A DNA stretch of 64,000 nt from Pirellulales bacterium (GCA_963820835.1 CAWGBP010000005.1:6257-70256), one strand, 5' to 3'. Positions 16,670-20,452 are shown, numbered from the stretch's first letter. Made by a program: numbers and translations. Notes: generated by a model from the sequence alone, not told the origin.

Positions 16670-17260
16670 TTGCCTGGTGCCGGTAAAACAACGATGGCCA
16701 AACAATTGGCGACGCGGCTGGGATGGAAGTGTTTGCTTTTAGGTGAAGAACTTCGAAAGCGTGCTCTTACCGATCAGACGCTAAGTTCATCATTAGAAAT
16801 GGGATTTCTAGCCCCCGAATCTATGGTTCAAGACCTCGTCGCGGAATGGCTTAGTGATGGAGACGACCGACAGATAGTTGTCGATGGCTATCCGAGACAT
16901 CCTGAGCAAGTTGATGTACTCGACTCAGCGCAAGCCGATTGGCACGTCATTTTGCTTGACCTCCCTGAAGATGTAGCCGTTGCGCGAATTCAATCTCGGA
17001 GGTCCTGTTCAGCATGTGGTCATCTTGGGAGTTCGTCTCGAAACGATACTTGCCCGGTATGCGGATCAACCGAGTGGCGGCTTCGTCAAGATGATTTGCC
17101 GACTGCTTCAGCTCGACGGTTTAGTCAGGCAATCACAAACCTTTGTGAACTAACTGATCGAGTGCCATCAATTCGACTTACACGCGTCCGCTCAGACCAG
17201 CCGATGCGATTAGTTTTCAAAGATGTGCTTGAAGCGATTGAGACCTTTTGCGTTCATTGA
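16670..17260 (+). CDS. Adenylate-kinase-like P-loop NMP kinase with Zn-binding LID (CxxC...CxxC)
   Basis: GLPGAGKTT P-loop, VVDGYPRHPEQ NMP-binding motif and CSACGH...CPVCG Zn LID. The ORF as called starts at TTG and lacks the beta-strand before the P-loop. That strand (VFLTG) is encoded in-frame upstream, overlapping the preceding gene's end. Confidence 0.6.
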   Translation: MPGAGKTTMAKQLATRLGWKCLLLGEELRKRALTDQTLSSSLEMGFLAPESMVQDLVAEWLSDGDDRQIVVDGYPRHPEQVDVLDSAQADWHVILLDLPEDVAVARIQSRRSCSACGHLGSSSRNDTCPVCGSTEWRLRQDDLPTASARRFSQAITNLCELTDRVPSIRLTRVRSDQPMRLVFKDVLEAIETFCVH

Positions 17261-19404
17261 ATCGACACTCGCAATGCGTCCTTTTCGTATTTTTTCCACT
17301 CCTTCTTACCGGCAACGCCAGTTGCAAGTGTAATCTTTGAGCACGCCCATTGTTTAATAGCCTCTGCAACTTTTTTATCGCCTGCCTTGTCAATGGCAGA
17401 TTTTAATTTAGATATATCGTGTTGTAGTCTAAGGGCGTAGAAGAAACGTCCAGTTTCTCCAAAGGTGAACCGATCAAACTCGTTCTTGGTTTCCCCGGTG
17501 CAAATCCTACTCAAAGTCTTCTGGGCATCCTGGATCTCGTCATCCGCGTCCTGCGCCCGCCAGTCTTCTAGCCTTCTTATTTTCTCCGCTGTTTGCGGAG
17601 GTCCCATATGTACCAATAGGTCGAAGCGACCTGAACGAATAATGGCTCCGTCAAAACTACCGATGTAGTTTGTGGCCATGAAATAGATGCACCTCCCACC
17701 TTGATTAAGTCGCTGTAGTTTTGGAAGCATGCTGGTAGTAAGTAACTGCTGGGAGACATCGATTGGATTAGTTGAAGCATCGGTTTCGGCAACATCACGA
17801 CTCTGAACAAGCGCGTCCATTTCGTCAAATAGGACGACTACGCCATACAAGTCCTGAAGGTCCTCGAAAACCTCAGAAACCTTGTTGTAAATACCTTCCA
17901 AGCCCGCACTGAGAAAGTCCGAGGGCGATAGTTCAACAAAATACCAACCTAAACGTTTAGCCACCGCTGCGCAGAGCGTTGTTTTGGAAGTTCCTGGCGG
18001 ACCAAAGAGAACCGCAGAATGCCGACACTTCAGGTATAGCCGCGGTGATAGAGATGCATTTTCTAAGAGTTGCTCTGTTGGCTCAAGAATTTCTTTGTCG
18101 ATTAGTTTTTTAACTGAATTTCGATCGTCAACTATGTCGCATTCTTTTGCCTTAAGAAAATGAAAATCCAGGTATTTGTCCCACGCGGCCTTTTCTTTTG
18201 GCCAAGATCGCGCTCGATTTTGAAATTTTGCCAGAACTGTGTCCCTGATGTGAATTGACAATTGATTGTTGAGACGAGCCAAGAACATATGCGCGACGCC
18301 GGTTGGCCAAGACTCTGGCTCGCCACGGCGCATGGCTTGAATGTCGCCACCGGCGTTCCAACCATAAAAGACCTTTCCATTGTGACGAAACTCAAGTCTG
18401 TTGAATTCCAACCAGGTAAGTGCCTTGTCAAGACGCCGCAAAGTATCTGGATCAGAAAGGATCTCCGGAAACTCGGATACGACTGCTTCAAGTACTTCGA
18501 AATGCCAACAATGGTTGGGACCAGATGTCGGATAGTGAAAGATGGGAAAGTATTTCTCCCAAACACCTGATTGCTCGTTTTGCTTTTCAAAAAAAGCCTT
18601 GATCCCTCCCCTCAACTCAGACTCTGATGGAAATTGCGTTTTCTTCAAAGCTTCGTAGAGTTCAACTGATTTTTCTGCAAATCTTTGTAGAGATCGGCAT
18701 AAGCAAGCTGCCATTGCCAACGCAACGGGATCCATCATCGCCTGATACTCGGCTGCAATGAGTGAGTGTTGTCGTCTGAATTCTGCGGCCGCCCAATTGG
18801 CGAGTTCCTGTGCGGAATCGCTTTCCAACCTGACACAAAGTTTGGACGCTGCGTCGACGATCCAAAAACCAATTGTCGGTGATGCGGGGAAAGGCGATAG
18901 GGCGAATGTGGCATCAGGGACTTTCAAATATTCTTCAAGGATTGCGATGATGGATTTGCGGTTGCAGATTCGCCATGCATCAGGAACGTCAGGTTCATCG
19001 TTGTACGATCGATATTCCTCTGAAACGTTTTTTTCACTTAATACTCGAGCCGCACGCATAAATCCTGCCGCCCTCGCCACAACAGCTACGGTGAACGCGT
19101 TATTTGCCGGAAGGCCGCCTGTGTCCCATGGTTGACCCATTATTATTGAGAATGCTTGTAAAGCTTTCTTTGTCGGACGAAAAACCATGGATGGTATTCC
19201 TGCAACGCAGAATGCCATCCAAGCCGTACAAGTCGGTGTAACGCTAGGAGCACTTAATGGCGATGGTGGCCTGCTTGGAAGACGATAAAAAAAGGTGGAC
19301 CCCTCGGGGTCTCGAAACGCCGCATGGTCGTCGACGAGAGTACTTCCAAGGTTGCGTGTACGTTCGCGGAGCTGACGCAACGTCTTAAGTAGCTTAATTG
19401 ACAT
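17254..19404 (-). CDS. AAA+ ATPase (classic AAA clade) with ~460-aa N-terminal domain of unknown function
   Basis: C-terminal half: Walker A LFGPPGTSKTT, Walker B VVLFDEMDAL and a sensor/arginine-finger region. The start overlaps the upstream PurA-like gene by 11 nt. Confidence 0.7.
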   Translation of the reverse strand: MSIKLLKTLRQLRERTRNLGSTLVDDHAAFRDPEGSTFFYRLPSRPPSPLSAPSVTPTCTAWMAFCVAGIPSMVFRPTKKALQAFSIIMGQPWDTGGLPANNAFTVAVVARAAGFMRAARVLSEKNVSEEYRSYNDEPDVPDAWRICNRKSIIAILEEYLKVPDATFALSPFPASPTIGFWIVDAASKLCVRLESDSAQELANWAAAEFRRQHSLIAAEYQAMMDPVALAMAACLCRSLQRFAEKSVELYEALKKTQFPSESELRGGIKAFFEKQNEQSGVWEKYFPIFHYPTSGPNHCWHFEVLEAVVSEFPEILSDPDTLRRLDKALTWLEFNRLEFRHNGKVFYGWNAGGDIQAMRRGEPESWPTGVAHMFLARLNNQLSIHIRDTVLAKFQNRARSWPKEKAAWDKYLDFHFLKAKECDIVDDRNSVKKLIDKEILEPTEQLLENASLSPRLYLKCRHSAVLFGPPGTSKTTLCAAVAKRLGWYFVELSPSDFLSAGLEGIYNKVSEVFEDLQDLYGVVVLFDEMDALVQSRDVAETDASTNPIDVSQQLLTTSMLPKLQRLNQGGRCIYFMATNYIGSFDGAIIRSGRFDLLVHMGPPQTAEKIRRLEDWRAQDADDEIQDAQKTLSRICTGETKNEFDRFTFGETGRFFYALRLQHDISKLKSAIDKAGDKKVAEAIKQWACSKITLATGVAGKKEWKKYEKDALRVSIQ

Positions 19405-20452
19405 TAGCTACCTCTCTGGAGCATTCGTTGGCCAGCGAGATTGCATCGAATGTACCAAAGCCAGTACCAACCCAATCGATTGGTGCTCGTAACTCGGCTT
19501 TAAGAAGTGAGAGAAAGTCGACGGCCTTCGAAGTGAGTGTAGCCAAACTTTCAGCGCCGCGATTGGCATAGTCCAATCGGTCGAGGCCCATAACCGCAAT
19601 GGAAGTTGGCTTGTTATAATCGAACGCCTTTCGCACCAATTCTAGATCGAACATTGCCACCCGACGGAGCTTTTTCGTAACTGAGGTGTATTCCGGCTCA
19701 ACCGTCGGTGCGCCCGATATTTCTTGCACATACTTCCAATTGATTTCATTCGCAATTGGGCCGCTATTACCTCCAACGCGAATCGGAAATGTTCGGATAA
19801 CCATTACAATTTCGCTAACATCACGCGGTGAAATTCCCACCTCAGCAGCGAACGCGGCCGCGGTCGTATCTTTGGAAGTCACGTATGGGTAATCCGGGCC
19901 ATGAAGCAAAGAAAGGCCAAATCCCTGTGTTCCTTCCACGATTACATTTCTTCTTTGGCGGATTAAGTCGTGAACAAGTGGTGCGACCGGCTCGATTCGA
20001 GCAACGCGTGCGATCAATTGTGAATTTGCCGCTAGAACCGGTGTAGATCGAAGCAGTCGCCTGGATGATGCACTTCCAGTACCCGAACCCGTACTTGCAA
20101 TTGACCGAGTCAGTGGTGATTCGTGGACCTTGTCAGCTTCTGAAATTGTCGCGGCTCGTGGATCAACAATTACGCGTGACCGCGTAATCCCAAGATCGGT
20201 TATTTCGTCTACCAGAACAGATTCGTCGACAACCGCACCTGCTGCAATTGCCACAATTGCATCCGAAATTGCAACAGACGAGGGCAAATGCCGGAGGATC
20301 TGATCGGTGAAGCCGACGGACGTTGTATGTCCTGAATTCGGCCCTCCGCACCGAACGACGCATGAAATTGGCCGCGTGCGTGAAAGGAGAGCAACAACTT
20401 TGCCCTTGCCTTCCGATCCGTATTGTCCACCAACAACTATGGTCACTGGCAT
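19394..20452 (-). CDS. Short (352 aa) adenylosuccinate-synthetase-family enzyme (archaeal-PurA / PurZ-like size) with non-canonical P-loop GSEGKGK
   Basis: Motifs match PurA: GGQYGSEGKGKV for QWGDEGKGK, GGPNSGHT for GGHNAGHT, and EGTQGFGLSLLHGPDYPYVTSKDTT for [24 protein letters not shown]. The catalytic Asp13 equivalent is replaced by Ser. It is ~80 aa shorter than bacterial PurA. Confidence 0.7.
   Translation of the reverse strand: MPVTIVVGGQYGSEGKGKVVALLSRTRPISCVVRCGGPNSGHTTSVGFTDQILRHLPSSVAISDAIVAIAAGAVVDESVLVDEITDLGITRSRVIVDPRAATISEADKVHESPLTRSIASTGSGTGSASSRRLLRSTPVLAANSQLIARVARIEPVAPLVHDLIRQRRNVIVEGTQGFGLSLLHGPDYPYVTSKDTTAAAFAAEVGISPRDVSEIVMVIRTFPIRVGGNSGPIANEINWKYVQEISGAPTVEPEYTSVTKKLRRVAMFDLELVRKAFDYNKPTSIAVMGLDRLDYANRGAESLATLTSKAVDFLSLLKAELRAPIDWVGTGFGTFDAISLANECSREVANVN

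Follow-up and report, generated by a model that had tools for sequence, protein, structure and literature searches.

PurZ joins dGMP to aspartate to form N6-succino-2-amino-2'-deoxyadenylate, the precursor of dZTP. To our knowledge this chemistry is known solely from phages, where it serves restriction-proof Z-DNA, and the only origin so far proposed for the phage Z-genome pathway is archaeal PurA (adenylosuccinate synthetase). The subject of this account is a relative found in a bacterial genome: a cassette at positions 14997-20452 of a 64,000-nucleotide stretch of DNA from a Pirellulales bacterium (GCA_963820835.1, CAWGBP010000005.1:6257-70256; this whole stretch is "the window" in what follows). 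The region is, as judged by gene linkage in related loci, a single three-gene unit encoding a PurZ-like enzyme, a large AAA+ ATPase and a nuclease-kinase protein designated F1. The cassette brings together known domain types in a way that has not been described. It is proposed here, with somewhat more doubt than conviction, that it would be a horizontally mobile anti-phage system of defence islands, in which the PurZ-type enzyme drains the dG pool and the ATPase acts as its gate.

The phage enzymes PurZ0 and PurZ (PDB 7VF6, 6FM1, 7ODX) have in common with the window enzyme a fold, a short archaeal-type size, Ser13, a GST motif, a two-residue insertion and a T-K-[K/R]-Φ-R-R loop. They are nevertheless distant: the relatives retrieved from phage GenBank records are the known PurZ and PurZ0 proteins, 32-37% identical to the window enzyme. 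The two groups also differ in residence (cellular chromosomes and plasmids for the window family, phages for PurZ/PurZ0) and in the company they keep: the partners of the window family are an ATPase with a toroid domain ("toroid-AAA"), F1 and a deoxynucleoside kinase (dNK), while those of phage PurZ are DatZ, MazZ, DutZ and DpoZ, for none of which the window or any of 85 related loci has a gene.

Among immune systems, RADAR offers the first comparison. It pairs an AAA+ ATPase, RdrA, with an adenosine deaminase, RdrB, that rewrites purine position 6, and it resides in defence islands. The likeness lies in the two-gene core of a large ATPase and an enzyme recruited from purine metabolism; there is no sequence relationship (no Rdr model of PADLOC picks up either protein), and RADAR deaminates, whereas the window cassette is proposed to run from the 6-oxo to the 6-amino(succinyl) state and has an exonuclease-kinase gene in addition. 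Kongming (KomABC) makes a base-modified immune signal, dITP, by combining a purine-base-converting enzyme with nucleotide kinases. Here too a base-converting enzyme stands with nucleotide kinases and an unusual deoxynucleotide is proposed as the product, but the enzyme families are others and the SIR2/HAM1 effector pair is absent from the window cassette. The nucleotide-depletion defences (dCTP deaminase, dGTPase) make the conversion of a single deoxynucleotide pool plausible as an antiviral principle, but they are single-gene systems, deaminase or HD-hydrolase, rather than ligase chemistry, and the dCTP-deaminase-like protein of sister cassettes (F2, below) lacks the deaminase catalytic residues. 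Amination or succinylation of 6-oxopurines is, as far as we know, chemistry not so far seen in immunity. Finally, the ATPase scores best in PADLOC against IetA of the IetAS system (Gao_Iet; E 1.1e-12), but over residues 455-647 only, that is, the AAA module; the toroid N-domain is unrelated and no gene for a protease (IetS) adjoins the window ATPase gene. PADLOC v2 has no model for the PurZ-like enzyme, for the dCTP-deaminase (DCD)-like partner or for another partner, F5, and yields generic AAA, kinase and DUF429 matches only. A full-text search of the literature found no description of the cassette (the DUF429 query returned mostly papers on DUF4297); the nearest mentions are of DarT-like ADP-ribosyltransferase (ART) neighbours (PMC12522546) and a one-line remark on PUA-domain operons.

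A cellular enzyme with the PurZ signature

The first-pass annotation of this DNA had assigned the 352-amino acid product to the PurA family, and this assignment stands (PF00709, Adenylsucc_synt, E 2.7e-47, 161.9 bits in Pfam). It had also read the catalytic Asp of the P-loop as replaced by Ser. An alignment made with MAFFT, in which the window enzyme was set beside PurA of E. coli and of P. horikoshii, PurZ of S-2L and of phiVC8, PurZ0 of Archimedes and six homologues, places Ser13 in the very column of E. coli Asp13, so that the exchange is real and not an artefact of alignment. It is also family-wide: GSEGKG is present in 119 of the 120 closest database homologues, Ser13 is unchanged throughout a 38-sequence family alignment, and Asp13 occurs in none of the best 150 representatives of clusters at 50% identity (121 have Ser, five have Gly and the rest are fragments).

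What the exchange signifies can be read from the phage enzymes. In E. coli PurA, Arg303 contacts the 2'-OH of the ribose. In the structure of S-2L PurZ, the corresponding Arg is displaced, an insertion after a conserved Val presses that Val against C2', and the Ser adjoins the 2-amino group of dGMP (PMC8342488). About 99% of PurA-clade sequences keep Asp13, and Ser takes its place in 147 of 147 phage PurZ/PurZ0 sequences (PMC12884076; see also PMC8515928); a few archaeal relatives have Ser or Gly at this position (PMC12884076). The earlier suggestion that the exchange marks chemistry other than that of PurA is thus borne out, and what had been missed is that Ser13 is the signature of PurZ. The other PurZ-type traits are present as well: GST in place of GTT, T-K-[K/R]-Φ-R-R in place of the T-G-R-R-R-R loop, and the two-residue insertion after Val273 (IRVGGNSG in the window enzyme, IRVGGTSG in phiVC8 PurZ, IRVAGNSG in PurZ0). 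At the donor site the window enzyme retains the guanine-specifying Asp (in GLDRLD) of P. horikoshii PurA and lacks the Asn/Gln of the ATP-using PurZ, which fits GTP as its probable donor, as has been reported for phage PurZ0. Lys16, Asn38, His41, Thr129, Arg143, Gln224, Arg305 and Asp333 (E. coli numbering) are invariant in the family. With its remaining catalytic and binding residues thus preserved, the PurZ-like protein is predicted to be an active enzyme and not a decayed one, and a regulatory role, which the first-pass annotation had held out as an alternative, becomes unlikely.

Two features are the family's own. Ala39 in the base pocket is replaced by Ser (PNSGH), invariantly and peculiarly to the cellular PurZ-like proteins, and seven residues are inserted ahead of the aspartate loop; neither is seen in phage PurZ. 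At the position of E. coli Arg303 most members have Arg, not Lys. In a rough neighbour-joining tree, which carries no support values and is indicative only, the cellular Ser-type enzymes group with phage PurZ/PurZ0, and P. horikoshii PurA is the sister of this clade. The window enzyme belongs to what appears to be a new cellular branch of the PurZ/PurA family, and a large one, with at least 641 clusters at 50% identity (E < 1e-30).

Could it, all the same, be the ordinary housekeeping PurA, of archaeal type, of its organism? Its closest solved structure, by sequence, is the short PurA of P. horikoshii (PDB 2D7U/5K7X; E 1.5e-49), with which it shares a length class and the GTP-site motif and which it matches at 172 bits (PurZ0 126, phiVC8 PurZ 102, E. 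coli PurA about 83); the best NCBIfam model is archaeal-type PurA, NF003295; and the source names of close homologues are adenylosuccinate synthase or synthetase. But the P. horikoshii enzyme is a housekeeping protein with Asp13, no insertion after Val273 and a T-G-R-R-R-R loop, three sequence traits in which the window enzyme differs, Asp13 being the residue that is nearly universal in the PurA clade (PMC12884076). The score against NF003295 is 285.3 bits where the cut-off is 368; TIGR00184 (195.9 against 395.6) is likewise missed, as is the PurZ model itself, NF038379 (212.1 against 300). When 185,579 species genomes were scanned for the motif, the Ser-type family turned up in 398, some 0.2%, dispersed across more than 12 bacterial and archaeal phyla (among them, in bacteria, Planctomycetota, Acidobacteriota, Verrucomicrobiota, Chloroflexota, Cyanobacteria, Nitrospirota and Proteobacteria and, in archaea, Halobacteria, Archaeoglobi and Lokiarchaeia). 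Complete genomes that carry it include CP036276.1 (Symmachiella dynata), CP197422.1 and OZ240667.1, and the gene is always tied to ATPase or DCD genes and to F1 genes. GC content over the cassette is 47-50%, against 54-60% in the flanks. A scattered and sparse distribution, scores below cut-off and the drop in GC together argue that the enzyme is probably not a housekeeping one, and we find that identity scarcely credible.

The ATPase and F1

The stop codon of the enzyme gene lies within the start of the gene for a 716-amino acid protein. Both open reading frames (ORFs) and their 11-nucleotide overlap had been described in the first-pass annotation and hold good, as does the division of the larger product into an N-domain without a Pfam match and a classical AAA module. 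What can be added is that the N-terminal ~450 residues are modelled as an (α/α)6 toroid with high confidence (AlphaFold pLDDT, the predicted local distance difference test score, 91.9; 90.7 for the full-length ATPase). Residues invariant in this domain include W93, N102, R111, W181, D225, W282, C299, E303, E306, R336, W349, E364, W366 and H372; searches of 50,697 phage records and of 72,556 plasmids brought up no match to it. The top Foldseek matches of the AAA module are Rix7, p97, Rpt and spastin, and the PADLOC matches to the protein (IetA, TRIP13) are to this module only. No toxic domain (nuclease, protease, NADase or membrane) is found in the ATPase, and classical AAA modules of known systems serve as sensors or regulators.

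The overlap of the enzyme and ATPase genes is 8 or 11 nucleotides in homologues, and in the window it indicates probable translational coupling of the two. It is not visible in the deposited gene call (P0121, 644 amino acids), which begins about 72 codons downstream of the ORF start (region 19189-19404). Since ATPase residues 1-62 are retained in homologues and confidently modelled (pLDDT 86-97), the long, overlapping ORF is the better call; public annotations probably shorten the ATPase gene and so hide its overlap with the synthetase gene.

On the other side the ATPase gene converges on what had been taken for a nuclease and nucleoside monophosphate (NMP) kinase gene pair. A functional linkage is upheld by the adjacency of these functions in nearly every related locus, but the two genes are not two: the ORF pair at 14997-17260 is, to judge from its alignments, a single F1 gene that a -1 frameshift has broken in two. 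The listed kinase ORF (16670-17260, TTG start, 196 amino acids) begins within the P-loop and lacks strand β1, which a -1 shift in GTG TTT TTC TAA brings back (...EVFFLTGLPGAGKTT), and the product of the shift aligns across the junction with the fused homologues of loci L030 and L036. The 555- and 196-residue ORFs of the window are 48-57% and 33-42% identical, respectively, to the two halves of these fused genes, and the N-terminal part shows 35-57% identity to its counterparts at over 50 related loci. A third locus, L177, has a fused RNase_H_2+ADK gene of 735 amino acids at the same position; in L033 the F1 homologue is also split. The frameshift of the window copy may have arisen in sequencing, may be a mutation that makes a pseudogene of F1, or may mark programmed slippage.

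The kinase motifs of F1 are those of an NMP kinase (P-loop GLPGAGKTT, GYPR, a CxxC...CxxC zinc LID and RxDD), and the kinase portion of PADLOC's dCTPase model picks this domain up weakly (E 6.8e-07). At the N-terminus, DEDDy and PHP 3'-5' exonuclease domains alternate between homologues, the PHP domain occurring in forms of about 970 amino acids. That two unrelated exonuclease domains replace one another argues that it is exonuclease activity itself that is needed.

The 3' ends of the ATPase gene and F1 overlap in the window, and overlaps of 4-21 nucleotides between these convergent ends, leaving no space for a terminator, are seen in at least eight distinct loci; they suggest tight co-inheritance or antisense interplay. 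A scan for promoters and terminators gave nothing above the expectation from shuffled sequence.

Table 1. Positions of the cassette genes, their domains and motifs, and a neighbouring gene pair, counted from the first nucleotide of the window (aa, residues of the protein named)
Feature	Position	Strand	Details
SIR2_2-TPR protein (641 aa) and DUF4365 protein (235 aa)	4852-7518	-	just upstream of type I restriction-modification hsdR
F1, N-terminal part (555-aa ORF)	14997..16664	+	probable true start ATG 15042; Pfam
F1, DEDDy 3'-5' exonuclease RNase_H_2	aa 132-283		DIE 135-137, NGSRFD 185-190, YNRAD 267-271
F1, DUF429 domain	aa ~343-530
Frameshift site GTG TTT TTC TAA	16653..16664	+	T5 run; -1 frame reads ...EVFF-LTGLPGAGKTT
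F1, C-terminal adenylate-kinase-like NMP kinase	16661..17260	+	Pfam ADK, NCBIfam adk
Convergent 3' ends of ATPase gene and F1	17254..17260	.	7-nt overlap
ATPase gene	17254..19404	-	716 aa
Classical-clade AAA+ module with C-terminal helical lid	17254..18054	-	PF00004, E 3.3e-21, residues 465-600
AAA motifs			intact: Walker A GPPGTSKT aa 468-475; Walker B VVLFDEMD aa 523-530; Arg fingers R590, R593
N-terminal ~450-aa (α/α)6 toroid domain	18055..19404	-	structural match to toroid enzymes or binders
Overlap of enzyme stop and ATPase ATG	19394..19404	-	11 nt
PurZ-like (Ser13-type) adenylosuccinate-synthetase-family enzyme	19394..20452	-	352 aa
Enzyme, P-loop GSEGKGK	aa 12-18		nt 20419 downward
Enzyme, PNSGH	aa 38-42		His42 = E. 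coli His41
Enzyme, GST	aa 119-121
Enzyme, EGTQG	aa 173
Enzyme, IRVGGNSG	aa 224		2-aa insertion after E. coli Val273
Enzyme, VTKKLRRV	aa 258
Enzyme, GLDRLD	aa 289		Asp291 = E. coli Asp333

Linkage, alternative partners and genomic setting

Do these genes belong together elsewhere? The first-pass annotation had made its proposal depend on this, and the enzyme and ATPase genes indeed form a conserved overlapping pair that is recovered by searching in either direction. Starting from the enzyme, an overlapping AAA gene (705-856 amino acids) lies downstream in six of six contexts found by exact protein look-up, and a toroid-AAA gene directly follows in 26 of the 27 assessable loci of the close subfamily (>53% identity), the exception having a different partner. 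Starting from the toroid domain, many homologues lie on the same contigs as synthetase matches, and three of three divergent toroid-AAA homologues have an Adenylsucc_synt gene upstream and F1 downstream.

Clustering the neighbours at 85 loci brought out five recurrent families besides the synthetase: F1, the fusion of a 3'-5' exonuclease (DEDDy RNase_H_2 or PHP), DUF429 and a P-loop NMP kinase (69 of 85 loci); F2, a dCTP-deaminase-like protein with C-terminal hydrophobic helices (46 of 85); toroid-AAA (34 of 85); F4, the dNK; and F5, a 260-amino acid protein without detectable relatives. They are arranged in two ways. In type A the order is F1 > PurZ-like > F2 > dNK; type B, the arrangement of the window, has PurZ-like > toroid-AAA and then either F5 or a convergent F1, which dNK may accompany, and wherever the sequence of a type-B locus extends past the ATPase gene the next gene is always F1, dNK or F5, at a distance of -21 to +88 nucleotides. 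Fusions tie the same functions together: kinase-PurZ-like, kinase-kinase-PurZ-like and PurZ-like-DCD proteins occur among the cluster representatives. This larger cassette family with its alternative partners, like the unity of F1 and the toroid nature of the N-domain, went unseen in the first reading.

F2 is probably "dead" as an enzyme. Where E. coli Dcd has Glu138, all 44 members compared have Pro, and they lack Ser111 and Arg115 too; with its catalytic residues gone it is not a deaminase, yet it retains the nucleotide-binding D-P-G and Asn motifs. F5 (11962-12747 in locus L058, 11222-12010 in L003) fills the F1 position and has invariant YxGDxxDxxK and DPDxG motifs and a conserved HH...R; it has no match in Pfam, NCBIfam or PDB, and no profile similarity to DUF429. 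A further kind of partner may be found on a Burkholderia thailandensis plasmid (NZ_CP141811.1, locus L173), where a 571-amino acid kinase-PurZ-like fusion is followed by an overlapping gene for a 216-amino acid protein (7124-7774) that may be of the DarT-like ART family (Lmac_3114). Members of that family adjoin adenylosuccinate-synthetase genes in 60% of their neighbourhoods, sometimes together with AAA and NUDIX genes (PMC12522546). On several Rhizobium leguminosarum plasmids (H55-H61) folE, the gene of GTP cyclohydrolase I, has as its immediate neighbour a short PurA-like gene of more distant kinship (31% identity), a purine-linked setting of another sort.

Ser13, the PurZ-type motifs and the PurZ0-like GTP pocket would also suit a Z-DNA biosynthesis module that belongs to an integrated phage or to another mobile element, with a true PurZ0 serving that element's own 2-aminoadenine genome, and the joint clade of cellular and phage Ser-type enzymes in the rough tree would agree with it. 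Viruses even share something of the gene linkage: a Dut/DCD-like gene of about 145 amino acids comes directly after the PurZ-like gene in 13 of 80 viral loci (L118, L121, L123, L124 and L131 among them) and seven viral PurZ-like enzymes have an N-terminal kinase fusion, linkages that are the same as those of the cellular cassettes (the PurZ-like-DCD adjacency included) and of the published pairing of PurZ0 with DutZ in phages (PMC12884076). But no DatZ, MazZ, DpoZ, structural or lysis gene lies near any cassette that was read; toroid-AAA, full-length F1, dNK and F5 are found in 0 of 80 viral loci, the phage records are devoid of the toroid domain, and the best relatives in phages and viral contigs are at most 36-44% identical (44% at most in IMG/VR). 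These comparisons argue, at the level of gene content and identity, against a phage origin of the window copy. A prophage Z-cluster was rejected on the lack of DatZ, MazZ, DpoZ or phage genes nearby, as was the housekeeping PurA on the loss of Asp13 and the sub-cut-off score, and an element's Z-module is judged very improbable.

The setting of the cassette is a defence island with a type I restriction-modification (R-M) system, as the first-pass annotation had it; its mobile-element helix-turn-helix operon goes back to matches below Pfam cut-offs and to genes that are not conserved beside the cassette. The window cassette comes after a SIR2_2-TPR gene and a DUF4365 gene, which look like a further candidate defence pair of the island, and a complete type I R-M system. 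Genes in the flanks of other type-B loci include those for type IIG R-M, HmaB/C, PglX, BrxL, DrmB, LmuB and type I restriction endonuclease, and the known systems represented in cassette flanks are R-M, BREX, DISARM, Lamassu, Tn7-like and toxin-antitoxin (TA). On a Sinorhizobium medicae plasmid the PurZ-like gene and F2 stand beside AbiEii and a PHD antitoxin. Recurrence among defence genes and mobile elements, together with a patchy distribution, is what one would look for in a defence system, and both are found, the former in the loci sampled.

Some neighbours are recorded for their own sake. In L177 (11334-14343) a type-B cassette lies directly beside Tn7-like tnsA, tnsB and tniB/tnsC and is probably transposon cargo. 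Four independent loci (23451-25097 on the + strand of the window; L002, 2725-7086; L039; L066) have, no more than a few kb from the cassette, a Ser/Thr protein kinase gene of one BLAST family (f6), which is fused to a NERD domain in L002; it may serve the cassette as an accessory or may be a defence gene of the neighbourhood. In the window a 208-amino acid ORF (10606-11232, - strand) separates hsdR from hsdS; it overlaps hsdR by 4 nucleotides and has no match in Pfam, NCBIfam or PADLOC. A 264-amino acid ORF upstream of the cassette was rejected as a member of the system: it has no family or structure match and is not conserved beside the cassette.

The same facts bear on a non-immune explanation, that the cassette is a salvage or sanitation module which recycles deoxynucleotides derived from DNA or turns a damaged 6-oxopurine nucleotide into an adenine-type one. 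Every component apart from the ATPase or membrane partner would suit such a module, exonuclease, dNK, NMP kinase and PurA-family ligase being nucleotide-metabolic, and fusions are typical of metabolic pathways. Its distribution, though, is very sparse and scattered, its GC content is low against its flanks, it is set among R-M, BREX, DISARM, Lamassu, TA and Tn7 genes, and the AAA+ or membrane partner has no obvious metabolic role. We consider salvage improbable, if less so than an element's Z-module.

What the cassette may do

If the cassette is an anti-phage system that depletes dG, it could work as follows. The enzyme would spend GTP on activating a guanine deoxynucleotide, of which dGMP is the likeliest, at its 6-oxo group and would add L-aspartate to yield N6-succino-2-amino-deoxyadenylate, which host PurB would turn into dZMP. 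The exonuclease of F1 would free deoxynucleoside monophosphates from DNA or DNA ends, and its adenylate-kinase-like domain would phosphorylate the adenine-like product. The toroid-AAA+ protein, made in fixed ratio with the enzyme, would be the sensor or gatekeeper that unleashes the enzyme upon infection, much as RdrA does for RdrB in RADAR. The dG pool would thus pass into succino- and 2-aminoadenine nucleotides, and phage DNA synthesis would be starved or poisoned. Substrate, product, trigger, the roles of the partners and protection itself are all inferred from comparative genomics.

A number of observations weigh against this proposal. 1) With Ala39 exchanged for Ser and Arg kept at the Arg303 position, specificity for deoxynucleotides and for guanine is not assured by the residues present, and IMP, GMP, dIMP or a modified nucleotide are other candidates for the substrate. 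2) A passage in the S-2L PurZ report (PMC8342488) has E. coli tolerating the incorporation of Z when a phage Z-cluster is expressed; given that tolerance, dZTP alone may be a weak poison. 3) There are minimal cassettes, PurZ-like + AAA + F5, that lack any kinase or exonuclease. 4) The slot after the synthetase is filled variously, by toroid-AAA or by the catalytically dead, transmembrane DCD protein, and possibly by a DarT-like ART as a third partner; such variation would equally fit a signal with its effector. 5) F1 is frameshifted here, so that the window copy may be partly inactive. 6) The defence context rests on the loci sampled.

The fourth of these points leads to the explanation with most in common with Kongming and CBASS: enzyme and kinases would make, from the breakdown of DNA, a succino- or 2-aminoadenine deoxynucleoside di- or triphosphate as messenger, and the protein encoded downstream would sense it and arrest growth. 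It would account for a variable slot after a synthetase that is the most conserved gene; for an F2 that has lost its deaminase residues, kept its nucleotide-binding motifs and carries C-terminal hydrophobic helices like those of nucleotide-gated membrane effectors; and for the dedicated kinases, which hint at a product that host kinases handle poorly. The DarT-like ARTs that neighbour synthetase genes (PMC12522546) would also find a place in it. Against it, an AAA+ ATPase with neither nuclease, protease, NADase nor membrane domain makes an odd effector, the PurZ-like-DCD fusion suits a regulator or pathway partner better than a generator joined to its receptor, and the metabolic machinery of exonuclease, dNK and NMP kinase seems excessive for a trace signal. 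A messenger system of this kind is judged unlikely, though it is the main rival. One can also frame the matter more broadly: a host immune cassette of PurZ type makes a succino- or 2-aminoadenine compound, whether poison or messenger, which the toroid-AAA+ protein or the dead-DCD membrane protein reads or gates, and the phage Z-pathway shares its ancestry, as captor or as source. In this form the proposal is possible but doubtful.

The depletion proposal has the merit that a construct of three genes makes it directly testable. There is a realistic chance of novelty beyond the class of nucleotide-converting defences, should the product, or the way in which the cassette acts, turn out to be new. 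If the proposal is true, prokaryotic immunity would gain a new enzymatic principle, the amination or succinylation of 6-oxopurines, and new enzymes would become available for the production of Z- or succino-nucleotides. The cellular family might then be viewed as an evolutionary source or as a sink for the phage Z-genome pathway; in either case, a large cellular family bearing the active-site signature of PurZ changes the picture of PurZ chemistry as a matter for phages only.

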